Source: Myxococcota bacterium
GTDB lineage: Bacteria; Myxococcota_A; UBA796; CAJQPC01
Direction of reading: 5' to 3'
Length of the DNA stretch: 64,000 bases
Assembly: GCA_036229005.1 (NCBI GenBank)
Contig: JAZAMN010000024.1
Coordinates: forward strand, 96,001-160,000
Shown: piece after piece, positions 4,117 to 20,400 of the stretch
Position numbering within the stretch: the stretch's first letter is position 1
How the letters are laid out: every line of letters begins with the position of its first letter
Program-made: the position numbers and the translations under genes
The notes under the pieces: generated by a model
The model's input: the letters and a program-made list of their open reading frames with translations, nothing else
The model's database searches: none
Told to the model about the DNA's origin: nothing

Positions 4117-4512
4117 GTGCCCGGTGAGCGCCAACTGGGGGTAGGGCCGACGACGGCTCAGGCTCAAGAGCGCCTGGACCGGGAGGTCCTGACGGGGAAG
4201 GACGCGTGGGAGCCCAAGCTGCCGGCGCGCACGGGCAAGCAGCGACGCTCCCAGATGCGGGTCGAGGCGGGCCCCAACGCCCCTCAGCTCATCCGCCTGG
4301 TGCGGACCCCCTACTCCATGAGTGCGGCCTGGATCCGGCGTCAGCCCTATGCGGAGATCGGAATGCCGGAGCGCCTGGAGCGGGTGGTCAGCGAGCCCTT
4401 GATGCGCCTCGCTCAGGAGGAACGAGGGACCCTGGAGCGTCCCGGTTCCAAGGATCGCCCCCGGCCGTGGCTGCCCGATCGGAGAAACTGGACGCTGCGG
4501 GGTGAGGAATGA
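4117..4512 (+). CDS. small hypothetical protein leading the eCIS operon
   Basis: 3' part of the 3220..4512 ORF, not overlapping other genes; stop overlaps the next ATG (ATGA at 4509-4512); start uncertain. Confidence 0.5.
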   Translation: MPGERQLGVGPTTAQAQERLDREVLTGKDAWEPKLPARTGKQRRSQMRVEAGPNAPQLIRLVRTPYSMSAAWIRRQPYAEIGMPERLERVVSEPLMRLAQEERGTLERPGSKDRPRPWLPDRRNWTLRGEE

Positions 4513-5357
4513 AGATCCCCGCTCCGCAGAGCTTCCAGGTCGGCAAGTACTCGTCGCCGAACATCATCGGCGAGACCACGGAGGCGGTTCACAAGCTGCT
4601 CCTGGACAGCTACGACGTCAGCGACCGCCCGCCGCGCCTTGAAGAGGACCTCAGCTTCACCCCGAAGGATCGGGAGGAGGTCATCTACGTCTACATGTAC
4701 CGGGCCGCGCAGAACCCCAACCTGCAGCGTCAGAAGCGTCTGCAGTTGGCGCCGGTCGAGGTCCCCAATGATCGCGGCGGGGTAGACGTCTTCTACCACC
4801 GGCCGCCGCTGCTCATGGACCTGTTCTACCTGGTCTGCGTGCACAGTCGCTTCCGCTCGGACGCGGAGCGGCTGTTGGGTTGGGTGCTGCTCACCCTGCA
4901 CTACACCCCCAAGCTGGTCTACCGGCCCCGGCGCTTTCTGCTCCCGGATGGCCGGCTGGTCGACTCCTTCGGTCGCCCCTGGCAGGACCAGGTCAACATC
5001 GAGGAGGCGGGCCTGGTCGCGGAGAAGGTCTCGCTCGCTCAGGTGGACGATCTGACCGTCGGTGACGCGATCAACTTGTTCACGCTCCACGAAGCCCCGT
5101 ATCGTCCCTTCCTGACCTACCGGGCGCGCGTTGCCCTGGATGGCCCCCTGGTGAGCACCGAGGGTGGCTCCACCATCGAGATGGGCAAGAAGGAAACGGA
5201 GATGTTGGAGACCAACTACCCTCATCGGAAGAGCCGGCCGAGCGGGCGCATCGGTCGCCCCCAGATGCCTTCCCGAATTCAAGAACCCCCTGGGCCGAAG
5301 GCCCACAATCTGCGCAAGCGGCATGAACGCATTGCCGACAACGACAGCGAGGAGTGA
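4509..5357 (+). CDS. DUF4255 / Pvc16(Afp16)-like cap/terminator protein
   Basis: 'IYVYMYR...NPNL', 'PPLLMDLFYLV...AERLLGWVLLTLHYTP', 'YRPFLTYRARV' pattern; position just before the sheath gene. Confidence 0.75.
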   Translation: MKIPAPQSFQVGKYSSPNIIGETTEAVHKLLLDSYDVSDRPPRLEEDLSFTPKDREEVIYVYMYRAAQNPNLQRQKRLQLAPVEVPNDRGGVDVFYHRPPLLMDLFYLVCVHSRFRSDAERLLGWVLLTLHYTPKLVYRPRRFLLPDGRLVDSFGRPWQDQVNIEEAGLVAEKVSLAQVDDLTVGDAINLFTLHEAPYRPFLTYRARVALDGPLVSTEGGSTIEMGKKETEMLETNYPHRKSRPSGRIGRPQMPSRIQEPPGPKAHNLRKRHERIADNDSEE

Positions 5358-5360
5358 TCC

Positions 5361-7157
5361 GTGGAGTACAAGACCCCAGGCGTCTACATTCGTGAGGTAG
5401 ACAGCGGCCCCAAGCCCATCGAGTCCGTTTCTACGGCCATTCCCGGCTTCCTGGGCCTGTTCCCCTACAACCCGCCGGCCGACGCAATGGCCATCAGCGG
5501 CACCGATGGCAACCGGGCCATCGAGGGGAAGATCCCGCCCCAGCTGGTCGACAGCAGCGGCAAGATCTCGGCCAACCACTCGACCGAGGCCGCTGCCTCC
5601 ATCATCGAGGCCTTCCGCTTCCGTGACCGTCAGGTCAAGGACGTCGGCGCGCTGCTGAACCTCTACGGTCACAACGTCAAGATCGAGCCCGGCTCCAAGG
5701 GCCGCGTGAAGATCTCCGACACCAAGGACCCCAAGACGAAGATCGAGATCGCCGATGTCCTGGTGGACGTGAAGGGCGCTGTGATCACCGAGGACGATGA
5801 GGCCGTCGAGCAGCTGCTCAACGACATCGGCCAGGTGTTCGCGCTGGAGCAGGCCAAGCCCAAGCACGCCAAGGATGTGCTCTCGGCCTACGGCCTGAAC
5901 TTCGAGGGCAGCGCTCCCACCGCGCTGAACTCCGAGTACTCCATCCCGCCCATCGCGGTGACCAACAAGAGCGAGTTCTTCCGCTGGCTGCAGAGCTTCT
6001 TCGCGGAGTACCTGCTGGCCACCGAGCCGATGGAGGACCTGCTCCCCGGTCAGTCCTTCGAGGACCCCGATGACGCTGCTGACGCGGTGTTCGAGTCCCT
6101 GGCCCGCGACCCGGCCCTCAAGAAGCGCTTCCAGGACTTCCTGTCCCAGCCGAGCGTCTTCAACTTCGTGGCCAGCGTCAACGGCTTCTACGACAACGGC
6201 GGCGGCAAGGCCTACGTCTACCTCATGGGCACCTCCGACATGGACTGCCCCATCCGCGAGAACCAGGCCGACAAGCTCGGCATCTACGCCTTCGACGATG
6301 TCGACGACATGGCGCTGATGGCCGCTCCTGGCCTGACCCCGCGTCAGCAGAAGGAGATGCTGGAGTACTGCGAGATCCGCAAGGACCGCTTCGCCCTGCT
6401 TGACGGCCCGATCGTCTCCGACGGTCAGATGGACATCCCCGCCTCCGAGAAGGGCTACGGCGCCATCTACGTGCCCTGGGTAAAGGTGGCCAAGCCTACC
6501 TGGTTCAACGGCAAGCAGGACCACATCAAGGTCACCGGTCCCAACCGGCGCAAGCTGATCAAGACCGAGAAGAACGAGCTCTTCGTGCCCCCCAGCGGCC
6601 ACATCGCCGGCATCATCGCCCGCGTCGACGGCGAGCGCGGTGTTCACAAGGCCCCGGCCAACGAGCTCATCATGGGCATCACCGGTCTCAGCCAGAACAT
6701 CAACCGCATCGAGCAGGGCCAGTACAACGAGCGCGGCATCAACGTCGTGCGCGTGTTCAAGGACCGCGGCATCCGCGTCTGGGGTGCCCGCACCCTGGCC
6801 ACCAAGTCCGATCCGAGCTGGAAGTACATCAACGTCCGCCGCCTGTTCATCATGGTGGAGCAGTCCATCCTGCTCGGCGCGCAGTGGGCCGTCTTCGAGC
6901 CCAACGATCAGACCCTCTGGAAGAAGCTGGTGCGCGACGTGCGCGCCTACCTCCTGCGCGTCTGGCGCAGCGGCGCGCTCTTCGGAAACACGCCTGAGGA
7001 GGCCTTCTACGTCCGCTGTGACGAGGAGACCAACCCCCGCTACCTGATCGACGCCGGTCAGGTGAACGTGCAGATCGGAATTTGTCCCGTGAAGCCGGCA
7101 GAATTTGTTATCTTCAACATCGGTCAGTGGGACGGTGGCGCCCTGATCGAGGAATAA
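5361..7157 (+). CDS. contractile tail sheath protein 1 (Afp2/3/4-like)
   Basis: YKTPGVYIREV, FYDNGG, YVPW, VPPSGHIAG, GVHKAPAN, GIRVWGARTL, YINVRRL, FEPND, PVKPAEFV. Confidence 0.95.
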   Translation: MEYKTPGVYIREVDSGPKPIESVSTAIPGFLGLFPYNPPADAMAISGTDGNRAIEGKIPPQLVDSSGKISANHSTEAAASIIEAFRFRDRQVKDVGALLNLYGHNVKIEPGSKGRVKISDTKDPKTKIEIADVLVDVKGAVITEDDEAVEQLLNDIGQVFALEQAKPKHAKDVLSAYGLNFEGSAPTALNSEYSIPPIAVTNKSEFFRWLQSFFAEYLLATEPMEDLLPGQSFEDPDDAADAVFESLARDPALKKRFQDFLSQPSVFNFVASVNGFYDNGGGKAYVYLMGTSDMDCPIRENQADKLGIYAFDDVDDMALMAAPGLTPRQQKEMLEYCEIRKDRFALLDGPIVSDGQMDIPASEKGYGAIYVPWVKVAKPTWFNGKQDHIKVTGPNRRKLIKTEKNELFVPPSGHIAGIIARVDGERGVHKAPANELIMGITGLSQNINRIEQGQYNERGINVVRVFKDRGIRVWGARTLATKSDPSWKYINVRRLFIMVEQSILLGAQWAVFEPNDQTLWKKLVRDVRAYLLRVWRSGALFGNTPEEAFYVRCDEETNPRYLIDAGQVNVQIGICPVKPAEFVIFNIGQWDGGALIEE

Positions 7158-7229
7158 ACCCCATCGACCGATTTTCGAGCAACCCGGACGTCAGTCACCA
7201 ACGTCTTGGAACCATAGAGAGAGGACCAC

Positions 7230-7673
7230 ATGCCTACTGATGATCTGTTTGGCGCATACCACTTCCTCCTGGAGATCCAGGGGGTCATCAACGACACCCG
7301 CGTGATCGTCGGCGGCTTCAAGTCCGTGTCCGGCATGGACTCGGAGACGGAGATCGTCGAGTTCAAGCAGGGCAACGACAAGGTCGTTCGTAAGAAGCCG
7401 GGTCGTACCACCTACTCGAACATCGTTCTCGAGCGTGGCTACACCGCGACTGATGACCTCTGGCTCTGGCGGAAGAACATCGAGGACGGCCAGATCGACC
7501 GCCGCTCCGGTTCCGTGATCATCATGGACCAGGATGGCGAGACCGAGGTCGCGCGCTACAACTTCTTCGAGGGTTGGCCCTGCAAGTGGTACGTGCCCGA
7601 CATGGACTCGGATACCTCCGGGATGGCCATTGAGAAGGTCGAGATCGCTGTCGAGAAGGTGGAGCGCGCCTGA
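7230..7673 (+). CDS. tail tube protein 1 (T4 gp19/Afp1-like)
   Basis: F.LEIQG, GGFKSVSG, KPGR..YSNIVLERG, RRSGSV, WPCKW; GAGGA RBS. Confidence 0.95.
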   Translation: MPTDDLFGAYHFLLEIQGVINDTRVIVGGFKSVSGMDSETEIVEFKQGNDKVVRKKPGRTTYSNIVLERGYTATDDLWLWRKNIEDGQIDRRSGSVIIMDQDGETEVARYNFFEGWPCKWYVPDMDSDTSGMAIEKVEIAVEKVERA

Positions 7674-7758
7674 TAGGCCCGCTTCTTCCGGCCCCGATGA
7701 TGGGGCCTCACCTGAGTTGATGTAGGTCTACTGACCTTGCTTTTGGAGCTGTTCCGTC

Positions 7759-8124
7759 ATGGAGCTGAAGACCGAGTACGAGTTCACCCTTCCCCGCGGT
7801 TTCGTCGACAAGGACGGAAACATCCACAAGGAAGGGGTGATGCGCCTTGCGAATGCAAAGGACGAGATCGTTCCCTTGAACGATATGCGCGTCCAGCGCA
7901 ACCGGGCGTACTTGATCATTGTGCTGCTCAGCCGTGTGGTGACCAGGCTCGGTACGCTCTCCGAGGTGAACACGGGCACGGTGGAGAATCTCTTCGCCGG
8001 TGACCTGCGCTTCCTCGAGGAGATGTACAACCGCATCAACGAAGATGAGGCCACGGTACGCGTGACGTGTCCTGAGTGCGGCCACCGCTTCGACAAGGAG
8101 TTCGGCCGCCTGGGGGAATCGTAA
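7759..8124 (+). CDS. eCIS tail assembly chaperone-like protein with C-terminal CxxC
   Basis: TEYEFTLPRGFVDKDG.IH.EGVMRLA...DEI.PL.D.RVQ.N.AYL; VTCPECGH; directly after the tube gene. Confidence 0.8.
   Translation: MELKTEYEFTLPRGFVDKDGNIHKEGVMRLANAKDEIVPLNDMRVQRNRAYLIIVLLSRVVTRLGTLSEVNTGTVENLFAGDLRFLEEMYNRINEDEATVRVTCPECGHRFDKEFGRLGES
8112..8118 (+). other. candidate programmed -1 frameshift site G GGG GAA
   Basis: CTG GGG GAA TCG TAA (frame 0) versus GGG GGA ATC GTA AGC TAC (-1 frame). Confidence 0.65.
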
Positions 8125-8279
8125 GCTACCCTCTTGAGAATATTCTCAAGGAGGTAGCGTTCATCGCCTACCACTTTCATTGGGACCGGGATTCACTCAT
8201 GGAGTTGACGCACAAAGAGCGTCACGCCTGGGTGAAGCAGATCTCGTCCATCAACGAGAAGATCAACGCTCCTCGTTGA
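8112..8279 (+). CDS. DUF6760-like reading frame, probably expressed as a -1 frameshift extension of the chaperone
   Basis: YPLENILKEVAFIAYHFHW....LMELTHKERHAWVKQISSIN is the DUF6760-type pattern; no ATG/GTG/TTG between the slippery site and the conserved motif. Confidence 0.7.
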   Translation, partial: GGIVSYPLENILKEVAFIAYHFHWDRDSLMELTHKERHAWVKQISSINEKINAPR

Positions 8280-8390
8280 GTTGCAGGACCGTCTGAGCGC
8301 GTAGTCTTCCTGGGTTTCCTCTGGAAGACTGCGCTTATCCCTTCGTGCACGTCCTCTGGATGTGCGCACCCTCCGACCGTGGATCCTCCC

Positions 8391-9581
8391 ATGAAGCCGG
8401 GCATCTCAGTCCAGCACAGCGCGCTGCCGACCCGCCGCTATGGCGTGGTGCGTGCGGACATTGCCGGGATCGTGGGCTTCATCACCAAGGAGCGCTGGCC
8501 CGTCGATGCGGCCGCCGGTGACTTCCTGGAGCTCAAGCTCCAGCGCTTCCGCGAGCTTGAGGATCACCCGCTGAGAGGTCTCTTCGGCCCGGTCACGACC
8601 GAGTCCGTCCGGAGCTTCTTCAACAACGGCGGAGACGTCTGCTTTCTCTTCGGCGTCTGCCTGGAGGACGCCCGCGAACTCGGCTCGGCCGGCAGCATCA
8701 GCAGTGTGCTGGAGCCATTGATCGTCCGGCTCCGCGGCAACGAGGAGATCGCGCTGCTCGCTGTGCCCGAGGCCGCCTACTTGCCCTGGACCATGTCCCG
8801 GACGGGCACAGTGAGCGCCGCCTGCGAGCCGCTGTATCGTGCGCTTCTGGCGCACTGCCGCGAGATGACCTCGCGTTTCCTGATCATGGATACGCCGCTT
8901 GGACTCCACGACGGAGCCCTGGAGCGGTGGGTCCACGCGTTCAGGAGCCTGGATCAGGACAACCTGAGCTACGGCGCGATGTACTACCCCTGGCTGATGA
9001 ACGGAGAGCGCGCGTTGCCCCCTTCCGCCGCGATGCTGGGGGTGTTCGCTCGGGTGGACCGCGAGCATCAGCCCTACGGGGTGATCTGGCCGCCGGCCAA
9101 CGTGCCCGTCCAGGATGTCACCCACCCGCAGGTCCCGTTGACCTGGGGTGAGGCGCAGCACCTGGCCTCCCAGAGCCTGAACCCCATCCTGACTCAGCCC
9201 GGTCGCGGGGTGTTGGTCTTCGGGGCGCGCACCCTGTCGCACGACCCGAACTGGGCTTTCATCAACTCTCGGCGGATCGCCTCGCTCATCTCGGAGCAGC
9301 TCCGGCGGGACAACGAGTGGGTGGTGTTCGAGACCAACCGCTCAGACATCTGGAAGATCCTCTCTCGCGACGTCCGCGCCCGCCTGGACGAGTTCTGGGA
9401 GCGCGGGATGCTCACTGGTGCCGCCGCTGGCCGGGACTACTGGGTCAAGTGCGACGAAGAGAACAACCCTCGGGAAGAGCGGGAGGCCGGTCGCATGAAC
9501 GTGCTCGTCCGCTTCCGTCCCGTGTCCACCACCGAACACATCACCATCGACCTGCGCTTGAGCCAGGCCGACGCCCGCTGA
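8391..9581 (+). CDS. contractile tail sheath protein 2 (shorter, divergent)
   Basis: PGISV, FFNNGG, YYPWL, PPSAAMLG, PPAN, VFGARTL, FINSRR, VFETN, CDEENNP. Confidence 0.9.
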   Translation: MKPGISVQHSALPTRRYGVVRADIAGIVGFITKERWPVDAAAGDFLELKLQRFRELEDHPLRGLFGPVTTESVRSFFNNGGDVCFLFGVCLEDARELGSAGSISSVLEPLIVRLRGNEEIALLAVPEAAYLPWTMSRTGTVSAACEPLYRALLAHCREMTSRFLIMDTPLGLHDGALERWVHAFRSLDQDNLSYGAMYYPWLMNGERALPPSAAMLGVFARVDREHQPYGVIWPPANVPVQDVTHPQVPLTWGEAQHLASQSLNPILTQPGRGVLVFGARTLSHDPNWAFINSRRIASLISEQLRRDNEWVVFETNRSDIWKILSRDVRARLDEFWERGMLTGAAAGRDYWVKCDEENNPREEREAGRMNVLVRFRPVSTTEHITIDLRLSQADAR

Positions 9582-9593
9582 TCGGAGTCCAAC

Positions 9594-10028
9594 ATGTCCC
9601 GTGAAATCGTCGACCCTGAAGGAAACTTCATCTTCGAGCTGGAGATCGACGGGATCAGCGTCGCCCAGTTCATGGAGTGCAACGGCATCAAGACCACCAC
9701 CACGGTCTTCGAGATCGAAGAGGGTGGGGTGAACCACCGGGTGCACAAGGTCCCCGGCCAGAGCCGCTGGGAGAACCTGGTGCTGCGCTACGGGGTGACC
9801 GCCGACACCACCCTGCTGTCCTGGCGCCAGGAGATCCTGGAGGACGGCTTCGCCAAGCGGCGGAACGGGGCGATCATCATGAAGAACCTCGCGATGGAGG
9901 AGGTCCGTCGCTACAGCTTCACGAACGCCTGGCCAGTGGCCTACGAGGGCCCCAACTTTGTCGCCAACGGCGCGGAGCTGGCCGTCGAGATGATCGAGCT
10001 CGCCCACCAGGGCATCACCGTAAGCTGA
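9594..10028 (+). CDS. tail tube protein 2 (Afp5-like)
   Basis: F.LEIDG, EEGGVN..VHKVPG, NLVLRYGV, NAWPV.YEGP, AVEMIELAH. Confidence 0.92.
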   Translation: MSREIVDPEGNFIFELEIDGISVAQFMECNGIKTTTTVFEIEEGGVNHRVHKVPGQSRWENLVLRYGVTADTTLLSWRQEILEDGFAKRRNGAIIMKNLAMEEVRRYSFTNAWPVAYEGPNFVANGAELAVEMIELAHQGITVS

Positions 10029-10035
10029 GGTCGCC

Positions 10036-13000
10036 ATGAGCACCCAAGAGTTCACAGCACAGCCGCGCCGCGTCCCTGGACAGGGGGTGCTTGAGCGCCT
10101 GGAGCAGCGCAAGCAGCGCCGGCCCCGTATCGGGATGTCGCCGGAGTTCTACGCCCGCTTTGGGATGGCGGATCCGTGGGCAGAGGGCCCTTTGGAGCTG
10201 CAGGACGACCCGGGCTCGCTCTTCACCTATGTCGACGCAACGCGCTACCGGCGGATGATGCGTCGGCTGGCCTTCTCCCGCTGGCGTCGTGAGCGCCGCG
10301 CAAAGCTCTTTCACAGCCGCCGGGTTGGACTGCCCACGGCCGCGCGCCGCGCATTCCCCGGTGAGTCTCGTCGATTCACCTTCGGGCTCCGTACCCTCGG
10401 CCTCTCCGAGATGGTGGTTCCCGAGGCTCCCGAGCCCGAGGTCATCGAGGTCCCCGTCCAGAGCCGGCCCCGCTGGGTGCGAAACGGCATGCGCTCCGTG
10501 GACAACCCCTGGACCCAGACCCGGGGTGGGCCCGCCCGCAGCGTCCAGACCCGGGAGCGTCAGGACGACGGTACGCGCAGTGTGACCACCGACCGGCCCG
10601 CTCGGGTCGCCAGGGCCCGATCCATGGATCGGGTTGGTGCTCGTCTGGAGCAGAGCCAGGCCAGCCGTGACCCCGTCCGCAAGGCCCTGGAGGCCGCTGG
10701 TCCACGTCTGGATCGCCGCACCCAGCGGAAGGTCCAGGCTACGCTCGCAGCAACTGCCCACCTGCCGCCCGCCGAGCGCGCGGTCCGCATCCGAGAGGTC
10801 CTGCGAACCGTCCGTGTCGTCAGGGAGGTCTTCGAGGAGCGTGTCGCTCGGACGGTGCCTTCCAACATGGCGCGCCCTGCCGAGATCGCCAGGGGGCGGG
10901 TTGCTGCTGAGCCTTCGCGTCGCCGTGGCCTGCGTCCGGTGATGGGGCGCTCCCCGTCCATGGATGTGCTCGCCCCGGTCGCCGAGCCCCAGGTCGAGGC
11001 GGCTCCCGCACCTCGCAAGAGCAACACGCAGACCGCTCTGGCGCGCGCGACCACTCGGCGGGTCAGCGCCTGGTCCAAGCCGCCCACGTCAGATGGGGCT
11101 CGGGTGAGTCGGAGCATCAGCCGCTCCCCGGTCGCTCGGAGTGGGGCGCCCCTCAAGCGCACTGCCTCAGGGGCCTTTGTGCCGGCGCGTCGGATGCGCA
11201 CCGTGGAGACCTCGACGGTGCTCAGCAGTGCCGTGAAGACCGCAGAGAGCGCAACCCAAGGGGCAAAGTCCGGCAGCACGCGCACCACCCCGACCTCTGC
11301 TTCCCAGACCCACCGTACCGCCTCCTCCGGGACGACGGTCAGCGGAACCCACAAGACCCAGGGGCAAGAGGCTGTTGGAGCGCGGAGCACCCGGACCTCC
11401 ACCGCTGAGACCCTGGGTGCACGGAGCACCTCGGGAGCCTCTCACGCCGGCGAGGCCACCCGCAGCGCGACCACCGCCAACCGCGAGGACACCGGGGCTC
11501 GCTCCGTCCAGACCGCGGCGGGGGACACGCAGCAGAGTCAGGCGCTTCGCACTCAGGGGCGGGAGTCCCAGGGGGCGCGCAGCTTCACCACGGCCGCAGC
11601 TCAGGCTCGGGGTGTGGAGTCGACCGCCGAGCTTGAGACCACCGGCCTTGGCCATGTCGGTGCCCGCAGCTTCCGGACTGCCGCGAGCGCGCACGCCGCG
11701 GCTCGGGCAGGTGTTCAGCCTCCCTCGCGCGGCGCGCTGCCGACTCCCGCTCGGGTCGCGGCTCGGAGCGCGAGTGGTTCTTTCATTCCCGCTCGTCGGG
11801 TCGCAGGCGCGAGGAGCGAGCAGGCCTCCCCGTCCGACAGTCATGGGGCTTGGGCGCTGCAGCGCCTGGAGCGCACCGGTACCGCGTCCACGGCACGTCG
11901 GGGGCGCTCGCTGCTGCCTCGGATGGCGCCTCGGGCTCCTGAGTCCACCTACGTGGTTCACGCCAACGCCGACCTGGATGTCCAGGCCATGGTCTCGGAG
12001 ATCAAGCGCAGCGTGCCGGGGGCGCAGGTGAGCGTTCGGGAGCCCAAGGCGGTCAAGGCCTGGGGACCTTCGCCGGTCGCAGCGGCTGCGGAGCGCGCGC
12101 AGAAGTCTCCGGTGTTGTCCCAGTCTGCGGGAATGGCGCTGCCCTCCAGCACCGAGCGCAGTCTGCGTCGCGCGGTGGAGAGCAGCGCTCGGGTCGTTCG
12201 CACCCGGAATCCTGTTCGCTACGTGCGGAAGGCCTCAGCGGAGCAGGTGACTCTCGCGGGGGTGGATCCAAACACCCTGACCTCGCTGCCGGCACAGGTG
12301 CGTAAGGCATTGGGAGGCACGGACCCGACCCAGGCGGTGAGGACCGCGCAGGGGGTGTGGATCCCTGCCTCCTCCTTCACCACGGAGAACGCAGGGAGTT
12401 GGTCTGGGGCGCGCGCGCTTCGGACTGCAGCGAGCCGGAGCGCTGGCGCCCGCAGCGGAACCACCCAGAGTGGGAGCGCCGTCGGGGCTGCCCGTCGCCG
12501 GACCCTTGGGAGCCAAGGGACTGGGGCGGCGCGCTTTCGGACGCCGCCGCTCTCGGGTGGGGGCGCGCAGGTGTTCCTGAGCCCGGAGCGTGAGGATGTG
12601 GAGGCTCAGGGCTTCCAGACGACGGCTCGAGAGGATCGGGCAGCGCGCGTCGGCGTCGGTCGGCCTGTGGCCTGGGCTGGTGCTCGCACGCAGCTCACCG
12701 AGACCGGGGCTTGGCAGGGAGCTGAGCGCTTCACGACCGGTCGGGGGGGCTTCGCGCCCGGCGAGCGGGTGCAGGGAGCCAATCGGCAGGCGCGCGGTGC
12801 GCGTCGCAACACGCTCTCTACGCTCGAGGCGCTCTCGGCGCAGGAGTATCAGGCAGGTGGTCCGAGCTGGGCGGAGCGGACCACGCGTCCCTCCCGAATC
12901 CGGACGCCTGGGGACCTGGTCGACCAGCTCGTGCAGGCCCAGGACGTCGAGCAGCTCGTGGGTATCATCGTCGAGCGAGGCGCTGAGATCCGGCCCAACA

Positions 13001-13488
13001 TGGGGCTCCCCAAGCCGGTGATTCAGGTGATCGAGCAGATCCGGAGCGTGGCCGCGGCCGAAGAGCAGGCTGCCCGCTCTGCTGGATCCGGTGGGCGTCA
13101 AGCGCGCGTGGGCGCCCGGGCGAGCACCCGGCGTCGGAACGCCAAGGTCATCCGTGGCTTTGCTTCGTTGAAGGGAGGGACGGCCAGCAGCACCGCCGGA
13201 GTCGGTCCGGACAAGGTGATGAAGCTGGCGTCCAAGCTGCGGAACCTCATTCACCTGGCGGAGGGGGGCCGGACTGCGGATGCCCAGCGTCAGGTCAAGC
13301 TCGCCCACGGGGACCGCCCCGATGGCCGGATGGAGAACGGCACCGACTCCGGGAACTCCGAAACGGCCGCCAAGCAATCTGTAGACATCGAGGCCCTGGC
13401 TCGGGAGGTCCTGGATGTCGTGAACCGTGAGAAGGAGCTCCGACAGGAGCGTCGACAGGAGGAAAGCGATGCTGACGTCTGGTGGTAA
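10036..13488 (+). CDS. 1150-aa Arg/Ala/Ser/Thr-rich low-complexity eCIS protein with C-terminal 'DIEALAREVL' helix
   Basis: GAGG RBS; fills the gap between tube 2 and the tube initiator; overlaps the next gene; C-terminal DIEALAREVLDVVNREKELRQERR resembles ends of eCIS accessory proteins at this position. Confidence 0.75.
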   Translation: MSTQEFTAQPRRVPGQGVLERLEQRKQRRPRIGMSPEFYARFGMADPWAEGPLELQDDPGSLFTYVDATRYRRMMRRLAFSRWRRERRAKLFHSRRVGLPTAARRAFPGESRRFTFGLRTLGLSEMVVPEAPEPEVIEVPVQSRPRWVRNGMRSVDNPWTQTRGGPARSVQTRERQDDGTRSVTTDRPARVARARSMDRVGARLEQSQASRDPVRKALEAAGPRLDRRTQRKVQATLAATAHLPPAERAVRIREVLRTVRVVREVFEERVARTVPSNMARPAEIARGRVAAEPSRRRGLRPVMGRSPSMDVLAPVAEPQVEAAPAPRKSNTQTALARATTRRVSAWSKPPTSDGARVSRSISRSPVARSGAPLKRTASGAFVPARRMRTVETSTVLSSAVKTAESATQGAKSGSTRTTPTSASQTHRTASSGTTVSGTHKTQGQEAVGARSTRTSTAETLGARSTSGASHAGEATRSATTANREDTGARSVQTAAGDTQQSQALRTQGRESQGARSFTTAAAQARGVESTAELETTGLGHVGARSFRTAASAHAAARAGVQPPSRGALPTPARVAARSASGSFIPARRVAGARSEQASPSDSHGAWALQRLERTGTASTARRGRSLLPRMAPRAPESTYVVHANADLDVQAMVSEIKRSVPGAQVSVREPKAVKAWGPSPVAAAAERAQKSPVLSQSAGMALPSSTERSLRRAVESSARVVRTRNPVRYVRKASAEQVTLAGVDPNTLTSLPAQVRKALGGTDPTQAVRTAQGVWIPASSFTTENAGSWSGARALRTAASRSAGARSGTTQSGSAVGAARRRTLGSQGTGAARFRTPPLSGGGAQVFLSPEREDVEAQGFQTTAREDRAARVGVGRPVAWAGARTQLTETGAWQGAERFTTGRGGFAPGERVQGANRQARGARRNTLSTLEALSAQEYQAGGPSWAERTTRPSRIRTPGDLVDQLVQAQDVEQLVGIIVERGAEIRPNMGLPKPVIQVIEQIRSVAAAEEQAARSAGSGGRQARVGARASTRRRNAKVIRGFASLKGGTASSTAGVGPDKVMKLASKLRNLIHLAEGGRTADAQRQVKLAHGDRPDGRMENGTDSGNSETAAKQSVDIEALAREVLDVVNREKELRQERRQEESDADVWW

Positions 13489-15901
13489 GGCGACGTTCAT
13501 CGACCTCGACCTTGGAAGGATCTTTACGGTCCAGTACAACCCCAAGGAATTCAAGGTCGACAAGGCGGTCTCCTGGAAGGAGCACGACGACCAGGGCCAG
13601 TCGCAGGCCCCCCTTGAGTTCCAGAAGGGGGCGCCCATCGTGGTCACGATGGAGCTCATCTTCGACACGACCCACGACGGTTCGGACGTCCGGAGCAAGG
13701 TGCAGGGCCTGATGGCCTTCACCAACGCGGACGTGCCGGTGCAGGGCGAAGGGTCGATGGACAAGAAGCGTCCGCCGCATCTGCAGTTCACTTGGGGCAA
13801 CTTCACGATCACCTGCGTGATCGAGTCCCTCAACGTCAGCTACCTGATGTTCTCCAGCGGCGGTAAGCCCATCCGGGCGCGCGTCTCGCTCAAGCTCAAG
13901 GAGTGGGAGCCCAAGGATGCCGCTGGTGGCAGCGGTGGCAGCGGGATCAGCGGCAGCAAGATCAAGCTGGTGAGCGCGGGGGCCGGGGCAACGGCCAGCT
14001 CGCTTGCCTCCCAGCACGGGACGACCGCGCGCCAGATCATGGATGACAACAACATCGATGACGGCATGGACATCCCGGCGGGCACGGAGCTCGTGATCAA
14101 CGATCCGAGCGGTGGGCCCGGCAACGTCAGCTCCAACCGCAACCAGACCTCGTCGGACTCTCCCTTCCAGGAGATCCAGGACGCCATCTCCGAGGTCCAG
14201 AAGGTGGTCAAGGAGGTCGAGAAGACCAAGAAGCAGATCGAGCAGATCTTCAACCCGACCGCGGGCAAGCCTCCTGGCAGCAAGGGAGGCTCCGGCCGTC
14301 CCGGCAGCGGTGGCGTCGCTGGCGCCCCTGGTTTCCCGGGTGCTGGTGGCGGAAAGCCGGGTAGCGCTCCCGGTGGCGCAGGCGGCTCCGGACCTGGCTA
14401 CGGTGGCGGCTACGGCGGCGGTGCAGGCGGTCCTGGCGGCGGCGGTGCAGGCGGTCCCGGTGGCGGCGGTGCAGGCGGTCCTGGCGGCGGCGGTGCAGGC
14501 GGTCCTGGCGGCGGCGGTGCTGGTGGCGGCGCAGGCGGTGCTGGTGGCGGCAAGCCCGGTGGCGGTGGCTCTTCCGGTGGTGCTGGTGGCGGCAAGCCCG
14601 GTGGCGCAGGAGGCTCCGGCGGTGGCGCTGGTGGCGGTAAGCCCGGCGGCGGTGGCTCCTCTGGTGGTGCTGGTGGGGGCAAGCCCGGCGGCGCTGGTGG
14701 TGCTGGCGGCGGCGCTGGTGGTTCCGGTGGCGGCGCAGGTGGTGCTGGCGGCGGCGCAGGTGGTTCCGGCGGCGGCGCTGGTGGTTCCGGCGGCGGCGCA
14801 GGTGGTGCTGGCGGCAGCGCAGGCGGTGCTGGCGGTGGCGCAGGTGGCTCCGGCGGTGGTGCCGGCGGCGCAGGTGGCTCTGGCGGTGGTGCTGGCGGCG
14901 CAGGTGGCTCCGGCGGTGGTGCTGGCGGCGCAGGCGGTTCCGGCGGTGGTGCTGGCGGCGCAGGTGGCTCCGGCGGCGCAGGCGGGTCCGGCGCGGGTGC
15001 TGGCGGCGCAGGCGGTGCCGGCGGTGCTGGCGGCGCAGGTGGCTCCGGCGGTTCCGGCGGCTCCGGCAGTGGCAAGCCCGGCGGCGGTAGCAGTTCGGGT
15101 GGGTCCAGCGGGTCCGGCGGCAAGCCTGGTGGCTCCGGCGGCGGTGCAGGCGGTGGTGCTGGCGGCGCAGGTGGCTCCGGCGGTTCCGGCAGTGGCAAGC
15201 CCGGAGGCGGTAGCAGTTCGGGTGGGTCCAGCGGGTCCGGCGGCAAGCCCGGTGGCTCCGGCGGCGGTGCAGGCGCAGGCGGCGCAGGTGGCTCCGGCGG
15301 TGCAGGCGCAGGCGGCGCAGGTGGCTCCGGCGGTGGTGCAGGCGCAGGCGGCGCAGGTGGCTCCGGCGGTGGTGCAGGCGCAGGTGGCTCCGGCAGTGGC
15401 GCCGGCGGATCCGGCTCCGGCAAGCCCAGCGGCGGCAGCTCCTCCTCTTCTGGAGGGGCCGGCGGCAAGCCGGGTGGTGCCGGTGGCTCGGGCGGCGGTG
15501 CGGGGGCTGGTGGCGCTGGCGGCTCCGGCTCTGGCAAGCCTGGCGGGGGCAGCTCGTCGGGTGGCAGCTCCTCGGGTGGCAAGCCCAGCGGTGCCGGCGG
15601 CTCCGGGAGCAGTGGTGGCTCGTCGAGCGGCAAGCCCAGCGGTGGGAGCTCGTCGGGCGGAGGTGGAGCCAAGCCCAGCAGCGCGGGTGGCGGCAGCTCT
15701 TCGGGCGGGAAGCCCAGGGGAGGCAGCAGCTCGGGTAGCGGCGGCAGCGGCCCCTCAGGCAGCAGCAGCGGCTCCAGTGGACCTTCGGGTCCTCGTGGTC
15801 CCCGTCAGGCGAACACCCAGGGTGGAGGCCGAAAGGTGGCCTCCGACGTCAAGTCGGCCAAGGCGAAGGCTGAGGCCAAGGCTTCGGAAGGAAAGGAGTA
15901 G
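13469..15901 (+). CDS. CIS tube initiator (Afp7-like)/LysM protein with a very long Gly-rich C-terminal extension
   Basis: AGGAGG RBS then ATG 13469; VQYNPKEF, LIFDTT, PPHLQFTWG, F.SGGKPIRARVSLKLKE; LysM-like 'ATASSLASQHG..ARQIMDDNNIDDGMDIPAGTELVI'; then ~500 aa of G/A/S/P/K. Confidence 0.85.
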   Translation: MLTSGGKATFIDLDLGRIFTVQYNPKEFKVDKAVSWKEHDDQGQSQAPLEFQKGAPIVVTMELIFDTTHDGSDVRSKVQGLMAFTNADVPVQGEGSMDKKRPPHLQFTWGNFTITCVIESLNVSYLMFSSGGKPIRARVSLKLKEWEPKDAAGGSGGSGISGSKIKLVSAGAGATASSLASQHGTTARQIMDDNNIDDGMDIPAGTELVINDPSGGPGNVSSNRNQTSSDSPFQEIQDAISEVQKVVKEVEKTKKQIEQIFNPTAGKPPGSKGGSGRPGSGGVAGAPGFPGAGGGKPGSAPGGAGGSGPGYGGGYGGGAGGPGGGGAGGPGGGGAGGPGGGGAGGPGGGGAGGGAGGAGGGKPGGGGSSGGAGGGKPGGAGGSGGGAGGGKPGGGGSSGGAGGGKPGGAGGAGGGAGGSGGGAGGAGGGAGGSGGGAGGSGGGAGGAGGSAGGAGGGAGGSGGGAGGAGGSGGGAGGAGGSGGGAGGAGGSGGGAGGAGGSGGAGGSGAGAGGAGGAGGAGGAGGSGGSGGSGSGKPGGGSSSGGSSGSGGKPGGSGGGAGGGAGGAGGSGGSGSGKPGGGSSSGGSSGSGGKPGGSGGGAGAGGAGGSGGAGAGGAGGSGGGAGAGGAGGSGGGAGAGGSGSGAGGSGSGKPSGGSSSSSGGAGGKPGGAGGSGGGAGAGGAGGSGSGKPGGGSSSGGSSSGGKPSGAGGSGSSGGSSSGKPSGGSSSGGGGAKPSSAGGGSSSGGKPRGGSSSGSGGSGPSGSSSGSSGPSGPRGPRQANTQGGGRKVASDVKSAKAKAEAKASEGKE
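14260..15800 (+). repeat. coding glycine-rich repeat region
   Basis: 24-nt unit (GAGGPGGG) x4 at 14420-14515; 30-nt GAGGAGGSGG units at ~14840-14975; near-identical ~87-nt blocks at ~15065-15151 and ~15188-15274; recurring GKPGG/GKPSG. Confidence 0.9.
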
Positions 15902-15904
15902 CGC

Positions 15905-16942
15905 ATGTCTTCGCAGCCTCGCTCCACCGCGGTCGGCTTTGAAGTGACCATCGGTGGCCAGACCTTCACCCAGGCCTCGGAAGAGGGTGGTGTGCAGATG
16001 CTGGTCGTCGAGGATCACGTCGATATGACCGACATGCTCACCCTCCGGATGGGCGGGACCCAGGGCCAACCGGACTGGAACTGGAAGATCGGCGACGAGG
16101 TCGAGTGCAAGCTCGGCAGCGGCGGCACCATCTTCAAGGGGCAGATCACCGCCATGGAGCCCGGGTACCAGGTCGAAGGGACCAGCACGGTCACCCTGCG
16201 GGCCATGGACCAGATGCACAAGCTGGGCCGTGGCCGGAAGACCCGCACCTTCGAGGACATGAAGGACTCCGACGTCGTCAGCCAGGTCGCCGGTGAGGCC
16301 GGCATCCCGACGGGCAACATCGAGGCCACTTCGGAGATCCACCCCTACATCCTGCAGCGCAACGAGTCCGACGTCGCCTTCCTCAAGCGGCTGGCGGCGC
16401 GGAACAACTACCTGCTGACCATGGAGGACGGGTCCATCGCCTTCAAGCGCGCCCAGTTCGGTGGCGGTGGGTACAAGCTCAAGATGGGGGACAACCTGCG
16501 CAGCATGCGGATGTCCTTCAACTCCATGGACCAGGTCCAGAAGGTGGTCGTGCGCGGGTGGGACCCCCACACCAAGCAGGCCATTGTCGGGGAGGCCACC
16601 ACGGCCGACGTCGAGCGCATCGGCGGAGGTGAGGTGGGCGCGGACACCGCGGGCCAGTTCGGAGAGTCCACTGCGTACATCACCGATGTGCCGGTGTTCT
16701 CCCAGGCCGCCGCCAACGAGATCGCAAAGGTCGAGATGAACCGGCTCGCCCGTCAGTTCGGCCGCGGCAGCGCCACGGTCCAAGGCAACGAGCAGATCCG
16801 CGCGGGCACGACCGTCGAGGTCGAGGGGCTCCAGAAGGGCAACAACGGCACCTTCTTCATCCTCTCCAGCCGGCACGTGATCTCCAACCGCTCCGGCTAC
16901 ACCACCGAGTTCAGCTTCTGCACCAACACGATGGGCACCTGA
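15905..16942 (+). CDS. phage late control D / gp27-like hub (N-terminal half of Afp8/VgrG)
   Basis: IFKGQITAMEP, RTFEDMKDSDVVSQVA, ILQRNESDVAFLKRLA.R, VVVRGWDP..KQAI; ends without a gp5 OB-fold or beta-helix. Confidence 0.88.
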   Translation: MSSQPRSTAVGFEVTIGGQTFTQASEEGGVQMLVVEDHVDMTDMLTLRMGGTQGQPDWNWKIGDEVECKLGSGGTIFKGQITAMEPGYQVEGTSTVTLRAMDQMHKLGRGRKTRTFEDMKDSDVVSQVAGEAGIPTGNIEATSEIHPYILQRNESDVAFLKRLAARNNYLLTMEDGSIAFKRAQFGGGGYKLKMGDNLRSMRMSFNSMDQVQKVVVRGWDPHTKQAIVGEATTADVERIGGGEVGADTAGQFGESTAYITDVPVFSQAAANEIAKVEMNRLARQFGRGSATVQGNEQIRAGTTVEVEGLQKGNNGTFFILSSRHVISNRSGYTTEFSFCTNTMGT

Positions 16943-16980
16943 GCTCGGGCCCCCGGGCCCCGTCCGAACGCCCCCAGAGG

Positions 16981-16986
16981 TAGACT
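16981..16986 (+). promoter_or_regulatory. candidate internal -10 element upstream of the baseplate genes
   Basis: TAGACT in the 95-nt intergenic gap; same TAGACTCCCG 10-mer as at 22998 and 45695. Confidence 0.4.
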
Positions 16987-17037
16987 CCCGGGGCACCGCG
17001 CGGAGGCACCCGCGCAGACCTGCACTGGAGCAGCCTA

Positions 17038-17427
17038 GTGTCTCAGCGAGACTTTCTCGGGAAGGGGTGGGCATTCCCCTTCGGATTCGACCGCGCGAGC
17101 GGTGGGGTCCGGACCTCCTCGGGCGAGGAGAACATCCGGCAGTGCATCACCGTGATCCTGTCCACCCGGCCGGGTGAGCGGCAGATGCTCCCGGAGTTCG
17201 GCTGTCGGCTGCACGAGGTCCTGTTCGCGCCGAACACCCAGGCGACCTCGGCGCTCATCGCGCACCATGTCAAGACCGCGCTCGTCCGCTGGGAGCCACG
17301 CATCGAGGTGCTGGACGTGCAGGCCCAGGCCCAGGCTGATGGGTCGGTCAACGTCGACGTGCACTACCTGATCAAGGCCACGAACACCCGCCAGGTCCAC
17401 ACCACGGCCCTGGCCAACACCCGCTGA
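17038..17427 (+). CDS. GPW/gp25 baseplate protein (Afp9-like)
   Basis: FLGKGWAFP, ILSTRPGER.M.PEFGC, RWEPRI. Confidence 0.92.
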   Translation: MSQRDFLGKGWAFPFGFDRASGGVRTSSGEENIRQCITVILSTRPGERQMLPEFGCRLHEVLFAPNTQATSALIAHHVKTALVRWEPRIEVLDVQAQAQADGSVNVDVHYLIKATNTRQVHTTALANTR

Positions 17428-17433
17428 GTCTCC

Positions 17434-20400
17434 ATGCCGATCAAGCCGCCAAACCTCGACGATCGCCGCTACGAAGACATCGTCGCCCAGGCACGCTCCC
17501 TGATCCCCCAGTACACCCCCGAGTGGACCAACCTGGGGGACGCGGATCCGGGAATGACCCTCGTCCAGCTCTTCGCCTGGATGACGGAGATGACGATCTA
17601 CCGGCTCAACCGGGTGCCGGACAAGACCTACATCCACTTCCTGAACTTCATCGGCGAGGAGCGCCGGGCGGCCCGACCCTCCGTGGCTCCGGTGACGTTC
17701 AGGCTGCGGGCGGATCACCCGGTCGAGGTCCCTGCGTTCACAAAGGTCGCTACCCGGCAGCGTGAAGACCTTCCGGCGCTGGACTTCCTGACCTCGCAGG
17801 CGCTGACCGTGCACGACAGCAAGGTCGTACGCGTCATGGCCGTCAAGGGTGGGCCCACCCCCTCCGTGCGGGAGTTGCCCTTCTCCTGGCTCGGTGGAGA
17901 CCCCAGCGCGCTCTCCTTTGCCGGTGGAGCGGGCGTCGCGGTCTTCGAGATCGACCCCCTGCACTTCGGGCCGGACGCCTACACCCCGCATCAGTACCTC
18001 TACTTGGGCCACGACGACCTCCGCCTGATGGACATCGATCCCGAAGAGGACACGGACCGGCCCCTCGGACGCCTCCAGGCCCGCCGGCGCTCCGGCGACC
18101 CCCTGTCGATCATCAACTTCTTCCGCTGGGAATACCCCACGGAGCAGGGCTGGCAGCCGATCTACGTCGAGCGCGAGGGCGAAGCCCCCTACGGCATCCC
18201 CGAGCACACCCTGATCACGGCCATGCCGGGCATCATGCCGCTGGATCGCTTCGGGCTCCAGGGCGCGGAGTTCATCAAGCCGGCCTCCGTCCGCGACCAG
18301 GACTGGTGGATCCGCGGGACTCTGGACTACGAGGCCTGGATGGCCGCCCGGATGGATCAGGAGTCGCGTGAGCAGGGTGGGGGAGACCTCTCCATCACCT
18401 GGCACGATGACCGCGGCGGCGAGGTCCGGGAGCTCAACAACTGGTCGGTGCGCGCTGCGGGCCGGACGCTGGAGTTCTACCTCAAGGATGCCCCCCTGAT
18501 CCGCGGTGGCTGGTCCCTGCGGCTCTCTCTGGTGGACCGGGGGCTGCAGGCGGGGAGGACGGCTGCGTTCCCCAAGTACCGCTTCTCCTACCGCCGGGGT
18601 GAGGTCTGGCAGCCCATCCCTGACGATCGCGTCCGGGTCGAGGGCACCGAGATCATCCTCCACGGTCCCCTCAACGACATGGCCCGCGACGGCTACAACC
18701 TGCGGGCGGAGCGCATCGAGACGGTGTTCCTGCGCGGGCTCATCAAGGACCTGGAGCTGGACCTGAACTGGTCCCGGCCGGTCGAGCTCTCCCTGCTCGC
18801 GGGTGACAACCCCTTGTCGCTCGTGCAGCTCCCCATGGACGAGCGCCCCTGGTCTCCCTTCCAGATGTCGTCGGTGCTCCCGCCCACCATCGGGCGGCGC
18901 CTCTACATCGGCTCGGACCTCTTCGAGAACCGGCAGAAGCTGCCCATCCTGGTCGAGTTCGAGATCGCCTTCGAGCTCAACGGCGAAGAGATCGAGGAGC
19001 CCGTCGACGACTACAAGCTGCAGCTCACCTACCGCGCCGACGACAACTGGCGCGTGGTCTACAGCCCAGACCAGCGCTACGCCGGCTTCACCCTCTCGGA
19101 CATCGACCCCGAGGGCGCGAAGAAGGCTGGGCGGCGCCGGGTGCGCATCGTCATCGACCCCGCCGAGCAGCTCAAGGGACTGGCCCGCCACGAGGTCTCC
19201 AACATCGAGACCACCTGGCTGCGGCTGGAGCTCATCAAGTCCAACCTCACCGGTCAGGACAAGAAGAAGAACGTGCACCCGGTGGTGCCGCGCATCCACA
19301 ACCTCCGCCTGGGGCCCGAGAAGACCCTGGGGATGGAGGCCTACGACCAGCCCATGCCCAACCCCCTGGTGGCCCAGGTGGATCACCGCGAGCAGAACCG
19401 CCGCTTGACGCGCTGCGTGTCCCGGGTGGCCGGCCGGACCTCGGAGAAGCACCCCTTCTTCCGCTTCGTGGACCTGGAGGAGGAGACCCTGTCCCTCTAC
19501 CTCCAGTTCGACAAGCCGCTCCCCCGGGGAGAGCGCCACGCCCTGCACTTCCGCTGCCGCGGCGAGGCCTTCCTGCCCGAGGGCACCTACGTGGAGTGGG
19601 AGATCCTGGAGCGCCGGCAGCACGGCCGCACCGCCTGGCGTCGGCTGGTTTCCTCCGGTGACAGCGGCCCGGGTGTCTACGAGCTCTCCCGCAGCGGCGA
19701 GCTGGAGTTCGCCCTCCCGGACATCCCCCCGGTTCCGGACGACGGCTTCTGGCTGCGCGCCCGCTTCGTCCTGCCCGAGGACACCGGCCTGGACGCGCTC
19801 CCCGGTCTGCCGCCCCTGACCCACCTGATGCTGAACACCGTCGAGGTGGTCAACCTGGACACCGTCCGCGCCGAGCGCTTCTCGGGACTGGGGGTGCCCA
19901 ACCAGGTGCTGGAGCTGCGCGAGCACCCCATCTTCATCCACCCCGGAGAGCAGGACAAGGCGGTCTTCCCGCGGCCCGAGCTGTTCACGGACGTGGCCGT
20001 GACCGTCATCTACCCCGACGGCACCCGCGAGCCCTGGTACCGGGTCGATGACCTGCTGCTCACCGGCAAGGACGACCCGGTCTACACCGTGGACCCCGTG
20101 GACGGCACGCTGCACTTTGGCAACGGCATCCGCGGCCGCATGCTGCCCGTCGGGACCAACAACGTCCTGGTCGACGTCTACCACGTCGTCCCCGGCGAGA
20201 AGGGCAACATCGGGGCCCACGAGATCCGCGTCGCGGACGGCTTCGGGGACCGGGTGGAGATCTCCAACCTGCTGCCGGCCACCGGCGGGCGGGACGCCGA
20301 GTCCATCGACGAGATCATCGAGCGGGCCCCCTCGCTGCTGACCTCCCGGGACCGGGCCGTGACCCGTCAGGACTTCGAGATCATCGCCATGGAGGCCTCC

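Follow-up and report, generated by a model that had tools for sequence, protein, structure and literature searches.

A putative programmed −1 frameshift joins a tail-assembly-chaperone homologue to DUF6760 in contractile injection system loci of bacteria and archaea

Phage lambda makes a short and a long tail assembly chaperone, gpG and gpGT, from one gene by a −1 shift. According to the accessible part of a review, G attaches to the tape measure and T to the major tail protein, at a ratio of 30:1. Here we describe a cellular locus whose proposed products follow the same scheme, in a window of 64,000 nt (the whole stretch of DNA analysed) from a Myxococcota genome with a GC content of 70%. The window is likened to lambda by layout and not by sequence; the tail of lambda is non-contractile, and the 30:1 ratio and the binding partners are those of lambda. 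The phages P2 (gpE/gpE+E') and Mu (gp41/FS-gp41) share with the window a contractile tail and the gene order sheath, tube, chaperone. In P2 the −1 frameshift lies near the end of the chaperone gene, where the window has its putative one, and E+E' is entered in the P2 record as a −1 frameshift product encoded between tube and tape measure; the T part of our locus matches E', and the P2 site, TTTTTTG, is common to 15 relatives of the locus. Mu gp41 bears a weak likeness to G (PF23746 in 25/96 G members; fold match to FS-gp41 among viral models, E 1.7e-3). Unlike both phages, the window locus is cellular and, over the contractile injection system (CIS) genes scanned from 4509 to 22034, headless, has the site G_GGG_GAA with an internal Shine-Dalgarno (SD) element and a hairpin, carries a CPxC motif in G, and has no tape-measure gene directly after T. 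P2 differs further in that gpE gave no alignment with the G profile.

Actinophage tail assembly chaperones use the same GGGGGAA heptamer as the window, with the same G:U re-pairing, and the accessible part of the source reports it for about a thousand SEA-PHAGES motifs; those are phage genes, compared here with the window by their heptamer. T4 gp26/gp51-like hub assembly proteins give strong fold matches to G as well as PF12322 matches, and tandem G-G and G-G-T forms occur in relatives; however, T4 is without a G-T frameshift according to the accessible part of a review, and most of the matches are 200-270 aa long, about twice the size of G. The cassette of Escherichia coli dnaX has the layout and spacing found in the window (internal SD, heptamer and stem-loop, here with spacings of 11 nt and 6 nt), but the gene is unrelated, the predicted shifted product of the window is the longer one, and its site is G_GGG_GAA. 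Lineage II eCISs (Streptomyces CIS-Sc/SLP and the haloarchaeal CIS) have, like the window, the order sheath-tube-G-DUF6760, which we found in records of Streptomyces, Nostoc, Halogeometricum, Rhodococcus and Burkholderia; the window locus is likened to them through gene order.

The features of the locus are listed below, with positions in the window.

5361-7157, + strand: tail sheath gene, first of the sheath-tube-G/T unit (PF04984 and PF17482).
7230-7673, + strand: tail tube gene (gp19-like), directly 5' of the chaperone gene (PF06841, E 4e-34).
7759-8124, + strand: G, a 121-aa tail-assembly-chaperone homologue in the zero frame, with one CPEC motif at 8068-8079.
8095-8100, + strand: internal Shine-Dalgarno-like AAGGAG, putative 5' stimulator, 11 nt 5' of the slip site.
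8112-8118, + strand: slippery heptamer G_GGG_GAA (Gly119-Glu120), read from the sequence.
8125-8158, + strand: stem-loop, putative 3' stimulator, 6 nt 3' of the heptamer (−20.9 kcal, z −4.69).
8118-8279, + strand: T, a 53-codon DUF6760 extension in the −1 frame, predicted three-helix domain (PF20546).
8294-8337, + strand: strong hairpin after T, possible transcript end (−26 kcal, z −4.17 for 8285-8345).
8379-10028, + strand: second sheath gene (8379-9581) and second tube gene (9594-10028), by Pfam.
10036-13488, + strand: 1,150-aa low-complexity protein in the tape-measure position, between tube and hub genes.
13427-22034, + strand: hub and baseplate genes, namely CIS_tube/LysM, gpD-like, baseplate J and P2 gpI-like (PF19266, PF01476, PF05954, PF04865, PF09684).

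The eCIS gene set of the window comprises Pvc16, sheath, two tubes, CIS_tube/LysM, hub and baseplate (Pfam matches from 4509 to 22034), in the order Pvc16, sheath, tube, G/T, second sheath and tube, 1,150-aa protein, CIS_tube/LysM, gpD-like hub, baseplate J and gpI-like. Since hub and baseplate genes are present, the locus is a contractile injection system. The sequencing runs containing this stretch are mostly marine. One RNA contig covers tube, G and T (7451-8313), which as a contig does not prove a single transcript. RNA contigs end at 8290 and 8313, near the hairpin at 8294-8337, a weak hint of a transcript end; this hairpin has no U run and was not called by a terminator scan, and a scan of 7000-8600 found no promoter-like site. 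The CIS_tube/LysM protein (13427-15901) ends in a tail of ~550 residues made almost entirely of Gly, Ser and Ala, and the whole protein has 330 Gly among its 824 aa. The end of the CIS cluster (23010-23921) encodes a membrane protein that begins with a YukD ubiquitin-like domain and carries a PHD-like Cys cluster in its C-terminal part.

The zero frame of G runs from the ATG at 7759 to the codons CTG (8110-8112), GGG (8113-8115), GAA (8116-8118), TCG (8119-8121) and TAA (8122-8124), giving 121 aa, and these coordinates agree with those of a preliminary description made from the letters of the stretch. The −1 frame, read GGG GGA ATC GTA AGC TAC, is open up to a stop at 8277-8279 and matches DUF6760 (PF20546, E 3.8e-15), in the frame where that description had placed it; the codon overlapping the zero-frame stop is indeed GTA and not GTG, and the fusion computes to 120 + 53 = 173 aa, the size proposed there. 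The choice of codons at the junction is more than chance, and these codons are rare in the genome: G|GGG|GAA occurs in 24 of 8,665 N-Gly-Glu contexts, GAA accounts for 5,874 of 88,592 Glu codons, and GTA for 1,355 of 100,620 Val codons. Contigs from two DNA runs (at depths of 7.8 and about 1,055) and from two RNA runs read through the junction without any indel or substitution, in a check made on contigs only, which lose rare variants; an indel error fusing the two frames, raised in the preliminary description as a possible artefact, was thus seen in none of the four runs.

Two candidate start codons for T were considered and rejected. The first in-frame ATG (8199) lies after the YHFHW motif, as the preliminary description had stated, and starting there would remove the YP..EVAFIAYHFHW core. 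The GTG at 8076, described there as lying inside the CxxC codons without a ribosome site, falls in the CPEC codons (8068-8079); its anti-SD pairing is weak (−3.7 kcal, versus −6.1 to −7.5 kcal at three neighbouring ATG starts), and the frame is open with a GTG in only 23/49 close relatives.

Then, we surveyed the junction in relatives of G. The queries were G residues 1-99 or G alignments, which do not include the junction, so that the sample was not steered by it. G was present in 172 of the 401 genomes sampled from the window's phylum, and also in many other phyla and in archaea. The survey comprised 70 matches from the phylum, 80 loci kept of 597 from a species collection, 14 of 45 plasmid records and contigs of a viral collection; after merging identical junctions, 179 distinct junctions with both G and T were obtained from bacteria and archaea. 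T lies in −1 phase to G in 177 of them, the other two rows being one cyanobacterial locus with tandem G genes. The constant phase that the preliminary description had called for is therefore found here, versus mixed phases in the same loci at the tube-to-G junction (63/40/34); those at the T-to-next-tube junction are mixed too (27/14/29). A tube gene lies at most 700 nt upstream of G in 104 of the 110 rows examined.

A −1 phase also results from ordinary gene overlaps of the ATGA/GTGA and TAATG types, so the telling tests are the slip motif, its variation among lineages, closed frames and missing starts. A slip motif lies within the last 45 nt in 173/177 junctions, compared with 34/885 upstream control windows; the motif classes were fixed after the loci had been inspected, and these counts overstate independence, since the loci are related to one another and the phylum of the window itself supplies 69 of the 177 junctions. 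The sites are GGGGGAA (94), AAATTTT (18), TTTTTTG (15), GGGGGGA/GGGGGAG/GGGGGGG (25), TTTTTTA (9), and GGGAAAT/C in two haloarchaea. The conserved GGGGGAA-like heptamer expected in the preliminary description accordingly holds for 94 of 173 loci, and elsewhere U-rich and GGGAAAY sites are found. Different lineages have different slip sites at the same place: G-run sites occur in the window's phylum and also in actinomycetes, methanogens, Acidobacteria, cyanobacteria, Chloroflexota and proteobacteria, most of the A_AAT_TTT and T_TTT_TTR sites belong to Bacillota, and the two haloarchaea have G_GGA_AAY. Most junctions carry homopolymer runs (G5-G7, T6-T7). Canonical X_XXY_YYZ heptamers occur in 44 relatives, and the G_GGG_GAA of the window is non-canonical.

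In some loci (L041, L107, L123) the −1 frame is closed immediately 5' of the heptamer, and this fixes where the slip would lie. No ATG, GTG or TTG lies between the last −1-frame stop and the conserved Tyr in 65/177 loci, and a start codon lies within 30 nt in 54/177. The codon over the stop may be any of the four Val codons, and many others, across loci; the zero frame ends E-stop or ES-stop or continues, and the −1 frame keeps Ile-Val-like residues. The distance to the conserved Tyr depends on the class of heptamer: 8-11 nt for G-class loci, mostly 20-26 nt for those of the U-class. Five loci have G_GGG-stop variants, which suggests that slipping in the P site alone could suffice. Exceptions were also found: ten G loci have no T nearby (two of these near a contig end), the slip motif is missing in L146, L199 and L202, and in L101 T is out of phase, after a stop.

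Some unusual loci were observed during the survey. In three Clostridia-type loci (L144, L166, L182) about 140-150 nt of open −1 frame lie between the G stop and the T core, and L144 and L166/L182 have an ATG or GTG near T as well. Two CIS loci on haloarchaeal plasmids (L092, L097) combine the canonical G_GGA_AAY with an ATGA overlap and are candidates for an archaeal cellular frameshift. In two Deinococcus plasmids (L100, L103) and in L085-L087, G occurs without a nearby DUF6760; in L100 the −1 frame after G encodes a short protein with a helix resembling the conserved C-terminal motif described below for possible clients of G/GT.

Neither an internal SD nor a hairpin had been named in the preliminary description. 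In the window, AAGGAG at 8095-8100 forms a duplex of −7.5 kcal with the anti-SD and ends 11 nt before the heptamer, and according to the accessible part of a review an internal SD stimulates −1 shifts when spaced 9-14 nt from the site. Anti-SD pairing exceeds the synonymous expectation in 110/119 G-class and 42/50 U-class loci, with about half in control regions, and in 44/52 G-class loci of the plasmid, viral and species-collection subset. The pairing peaks 8-11 nt 5' of the heptamer in both classes; the position of the SD thus follows the slip site and not the distance to the Tyr.

The hairpin of the window (8125-8158) has a folding energy that was matched by none of 200 shuffles. Among G-class loci, the 48 nt that follow the site form more stable structures than synonymous shuffles do in 112/123 (z < −1.65; mean z −3.48), compared with 17/123 and 36/122 in the next two windows used as controls; in the U-class no such hairpin was seen in the window tested (8/50). 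The Val codon in the stem is GTA in 91/97 G-class cases, against 94/1,196 Val codons in G genes and 2/16 at the same position in the U-class, so pairing in the stem imposes a rare Val codon. A covariation analysis found 63 changes on both sides of the stem versus 25.4 in shuffles (reached in 0/500), with 85.3% of cells pairing, compared with 35-57% when the hairpin register was slid off. It covered 77 of 118 sequences, hand-chosen for diversity, and took the structure from the window; with such a structure and related sequences, the covariation count is not a probability. The RNAalifold consensus was weak (−0.57 kcal, 6 pairs).

As regards the proteins, the tail assembly chaperone family phrog_508 is matched by 94/96 G members (best E 1.7e-9), including the window protein (E 0.0012). 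Other matches among G members are mostly weak, namely those to Mu gp41 (best E 0.0018) and Phage_TAC_7 (12 members). Searches of the window G against Pfam and NCBIfam returned no chaperone name and only zinc-ribbon noise from the CPEC motif, and a tblastn search with G drew no match from 50,697 phage records. The structural model of G (pLDDT 85.8) gave only three PDB rows with Z > 5, namely 3klu (YqbN), 2ob9 (HK97 TAC) and 3fgx, with middling values (Z 6.7/5.9/5.5, rmsd 4.4/3.8/5.3 over 92/86/88 residues); we take YqbN and 3fgx to be tail chaperones. Foldseek of G against the PDB had no match at E <= 0.001, the HK97 chaperone coming first at E 0.067. The label of chaperone given in the preliminary description is supported by phrog_508 and the fold searches, and some database records name G 'phage tail assembly protein' or 'FluMu gp41'.

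T aligns with P2 E' over 33 columns (hhalign, probability 88.6%, E 2.6e-6), and PF06528 is matched by 33/87 T members (best E 5.3e-6). The T model (pLDDT 91.5) had no match among viral structures at E <= 0.001, a search that is uninformative for a three-helix domain. The earlier proposal that DUF6760 is a T moiety and not a stand-alone protein gains from this similarity to E', and is limited by four loci with an overlapping ATG; the records examined annotate DUF6760 as a separate gene.

It is very probable, on the strength of these sequence comparisons, that programmed −1 frameshifting yields two chaperones, G (121 aa) and GT (173 aa), from one mRNA. The slipping itself, its rate and the roles of the two stimulators are what we infer from the layout, as follows. 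The majority of ribosomes would stop at 8122 and release G. A minority would be held by the hairpin 6 nt downstream, while pairing of the 16S rRNA with the internal SD 11 nt upstream would push them back; tRNA-Gly could then re-pair on GGG and tRNA-Glu on GGA in a one-base slip on G_GGG_GAA, or the slip might occur in the P site only, with GGA then read by a tRNA-Gly. The slipped ribosomes would append the 53-residue DUF6760 domain, producing GT. By analogy with lambda, G would coat a long tape-measure-like protein, the T domain could bind and recruit tube subunits, and the G:GT ratio would be fixed. The locus thus appears to hold a real and deeply conserved recoding signal, which would represent the phage G/GT principle in a cellular injection system.

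DUF6760 could otherwise be a separate small protein made by translational coupling, with re-initiation after 8122 at an overlapping start (GTG or ATG in many relatives, near-cognate ATC or GTA here) and with the G run as its Shine-Dalgarno. The −1 phase agrees with ATGA/GTGA overlaps, RefSeq annotates two genes, a near start exists in 54/177 loci, 101 G-class loci have ATN as the third codon before the Tyr, and L180, L217 and L223 resemble true coupled genes. We nevertheless consider this improbable, as a standard start is missing in 65/177 loci, the codon over the stop varies widely, and the ATC of the window lies 1 nt from the G run with an anti-SD pairing at initiation distance of just −1.7 kcal. 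Moreover, 46 loci have U-rich sites in place of the G run, and such sites cannot serve as an SD, which argues against the G run as the Shine-Dalgarno of T; a −21 kcal hairpin lies over the would-be start region, and the RefSeq starts are an ATA for the Nostoc gene and, in Rhodococcus, a TTG that removes the conserved Tyr-Pro. The homopolymer runs at most junctions would also suit transcriptional slippage, in which the RNA polymerase adds a G on the G run and part of the mRNAs encode GT in frame. This is very unlikely: the run is just five G here, whereas bacterial cases are described on 9 A or T in the accessible part of the source, the site keeps to the ribosomal phase while SD and hairpin stand at the distances expected for a ribosome, and the contigs of the two RNA runs hold no extra base, although contigs lose rare variants. 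An error of sequencing or assembly, or a fused gene that broke recently, might be suspected from the occurrence of in-frame fusions and from an assembly of 74 contigs; with four runs agreeing at the junction and the same layout across many phyla, complete genomes and plasmids included, its probability is close to negligible.

A further alternative accepts programmed frameshifting and concerns function only: G and GT could be hub-assembly chaperones of the T4 gp26/gp51 type, or cargo loaders, instead of tape-measure chaperones. Among the best viral fold matches of G are hub assembly proteins of T4-like baseplates (E 4.5e-7 and 1.7e-5), the T4 baseplate family PF12322 is matched, mostly weakly, by 13/96 G members and phrog_634 by 4/87 T members, and according to the accessible part of the literature lineage II eCISs lack an Afp14 homologue. 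PF12322 is above its curated cut-off in L196, a divergent relative (35.5 bits vs 24.5), and has no match in the window G. Against it, phrog_508 is matched by 94/96 G members, compared with 8/96 for the hub family, T is similar to P2 E', and G follows the tube gene. We regard it as rather unlikely; it overlaps with our preferred explanation, both families being tail chaperones, and the two roles may be one.

The junction was also approached from the side of DUF6760. The family was found in 14/301 genomes of an Actinomycetota-centred set and in 26/251 of a Planctomycetota-centred one; after the exclusion of one unpublished genome and five loci already seen, 41 new loci were retained. T lies in −1 phase to G in 37 of them (35 with the motif), three are in-frame fusions, and one has no G match within a short locus. 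A complete Candidatus Uabimicrobium genome encodes an in-frame G-T fusion of 167 aa, as does a second sequence with 81% identity to it (P0219, P0271/L252), and two genomes (L245 and L247) encode an in-frame G-G-T fusion of 301 aa. An ATG overlaps the end of G in L180, L217 and L223, where no slip motif was found, and in L220, where the motif was not scored; among actinomycete loci, 15/16 have a possible start within 30 nt, beside the slip site. These starts suggest that T may be a separate protein in some lineages, and that in actinomycetes both routes may run.

Three further sequences that looked fused by a text motif (P0132, P0244, P0195) were left out of the count, being apparently erroneous or unrelated reads. 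None of four candidates for longer proteins holding T alone passed, and a metagenome scan with the fusion P0271 gave no confirmed case. L245 and L247 (744-1647) keep TTC TTT TTT at the junction and are possibly inverted, with the short form made by shifting. One genome (G713) has both the in-frame G-T fusion L252, without the CPxC part, and a standard frameshift locus with G_GGG_GAG (L240). Seven tandem G-G proteins of 210-252 aa (P0121, P0122, P0126, P0130, P0170, P0272, P0273) have the size of T4-like hub assembly proteins, and two of them carry a −1-frame-like tail after GES.

A chaperone pair of this kind would act on a client. In the window, T is followed by the second sheath and tube and then by the 1,150-aa protein, which we infer to be a candidate client of G/GT. 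It has no Pfam, PHROG or NCBIfam match, and no match to a tape-measure family was found at the window locus. In at least 36 of 109 loci, a profile detected a protein a short distance downstream that is mostly 260-1,060 aa long and has a conserved C-terminal helix, a lower bound as the 4-kb flanks cut long genes; a regex search for a tape-measure-like C-terminus found 8/108 loci. The 1,150-aa protein matches this helix weakly (E 0.033, above the cut-off of 1e-3). According to the accessible parts of published studies, lineage II eCISs have no Afp14 and carry unknown subtype-specific genes, Streptomyces coelicolor particles have a uniform length of 268 nm and a cluster without a tape-measure gene, the haloarchaeal CIS is without one as well, and Tme and Sle1 are described as tape-measure-like cargo proteins. 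In the same sources, Sco4251 was found in one or more particle purifications; by its position only, it is probably G.

On this basis we put forward a broader reading, tentatively and as somewhat short of probable. Lineage II eCISs of bacteria and archaea would have kept the whole phage G/GT programme, a chaperone ratio set by frameshifting would thread a long, fast-evolving lumenal protein into the tube, and the chromosomal −1 frameshift would be very widespread, would have arisen anew with three or more kinds of slip site and would operate in archaea. Candidates for the threaded protein would be a cargo of the Tme/Sle1-like or DUF4157 kind, or the protein of variable length that has the C-terminal helix. 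If so, the lumenal protein would be tape measure and cargo at once, which would explain the uniform length and offer a route for cargo loading. The G/GT pair would also imply a hidden tape-measure-like client in eCISs said to have none, and could serve as bait for finding it.

Programmed frameshifts in cellular genes are few, and this one, if real, would be among the most widespread. The G/GT slip is known from phages; what would be new is its form in a cellular injection system, with dnaX-like stimulators and lineage-specific sites. DUF6760 would gain a role, and databases would be listing a protein mostly absent on its own and omitting GT; deleting, tagging or codon-optimising the two 'genes' in model systems would then alter the G:GT ratio. 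A literature search found no paper on DUF6760, and one for CIS with frameshifting returned unrelated listings. The main texts of the CIS papers, in the parts accessible, mention neither a frameshift nor a tail assembly chaperone, in line with the preliminary description, which had placed this frameshift outside standard eCIS descriptions. The GeneTack survey mentions just an HK97-like chaperone cluster in its accessible part; its supplements, searched in part, may list the G/T family.

A second injection-system locus was observed in the window's own genome (L002; G000, contig C50, about 17400-17980, minus strand). It encodes a divergent G with DUF6760 in −1 phase; its junction reads TCG GGG TGA (G_GGG and then the stop) and has two in-frame GTG codons, so that this locus may slip on the stop or start T separately.
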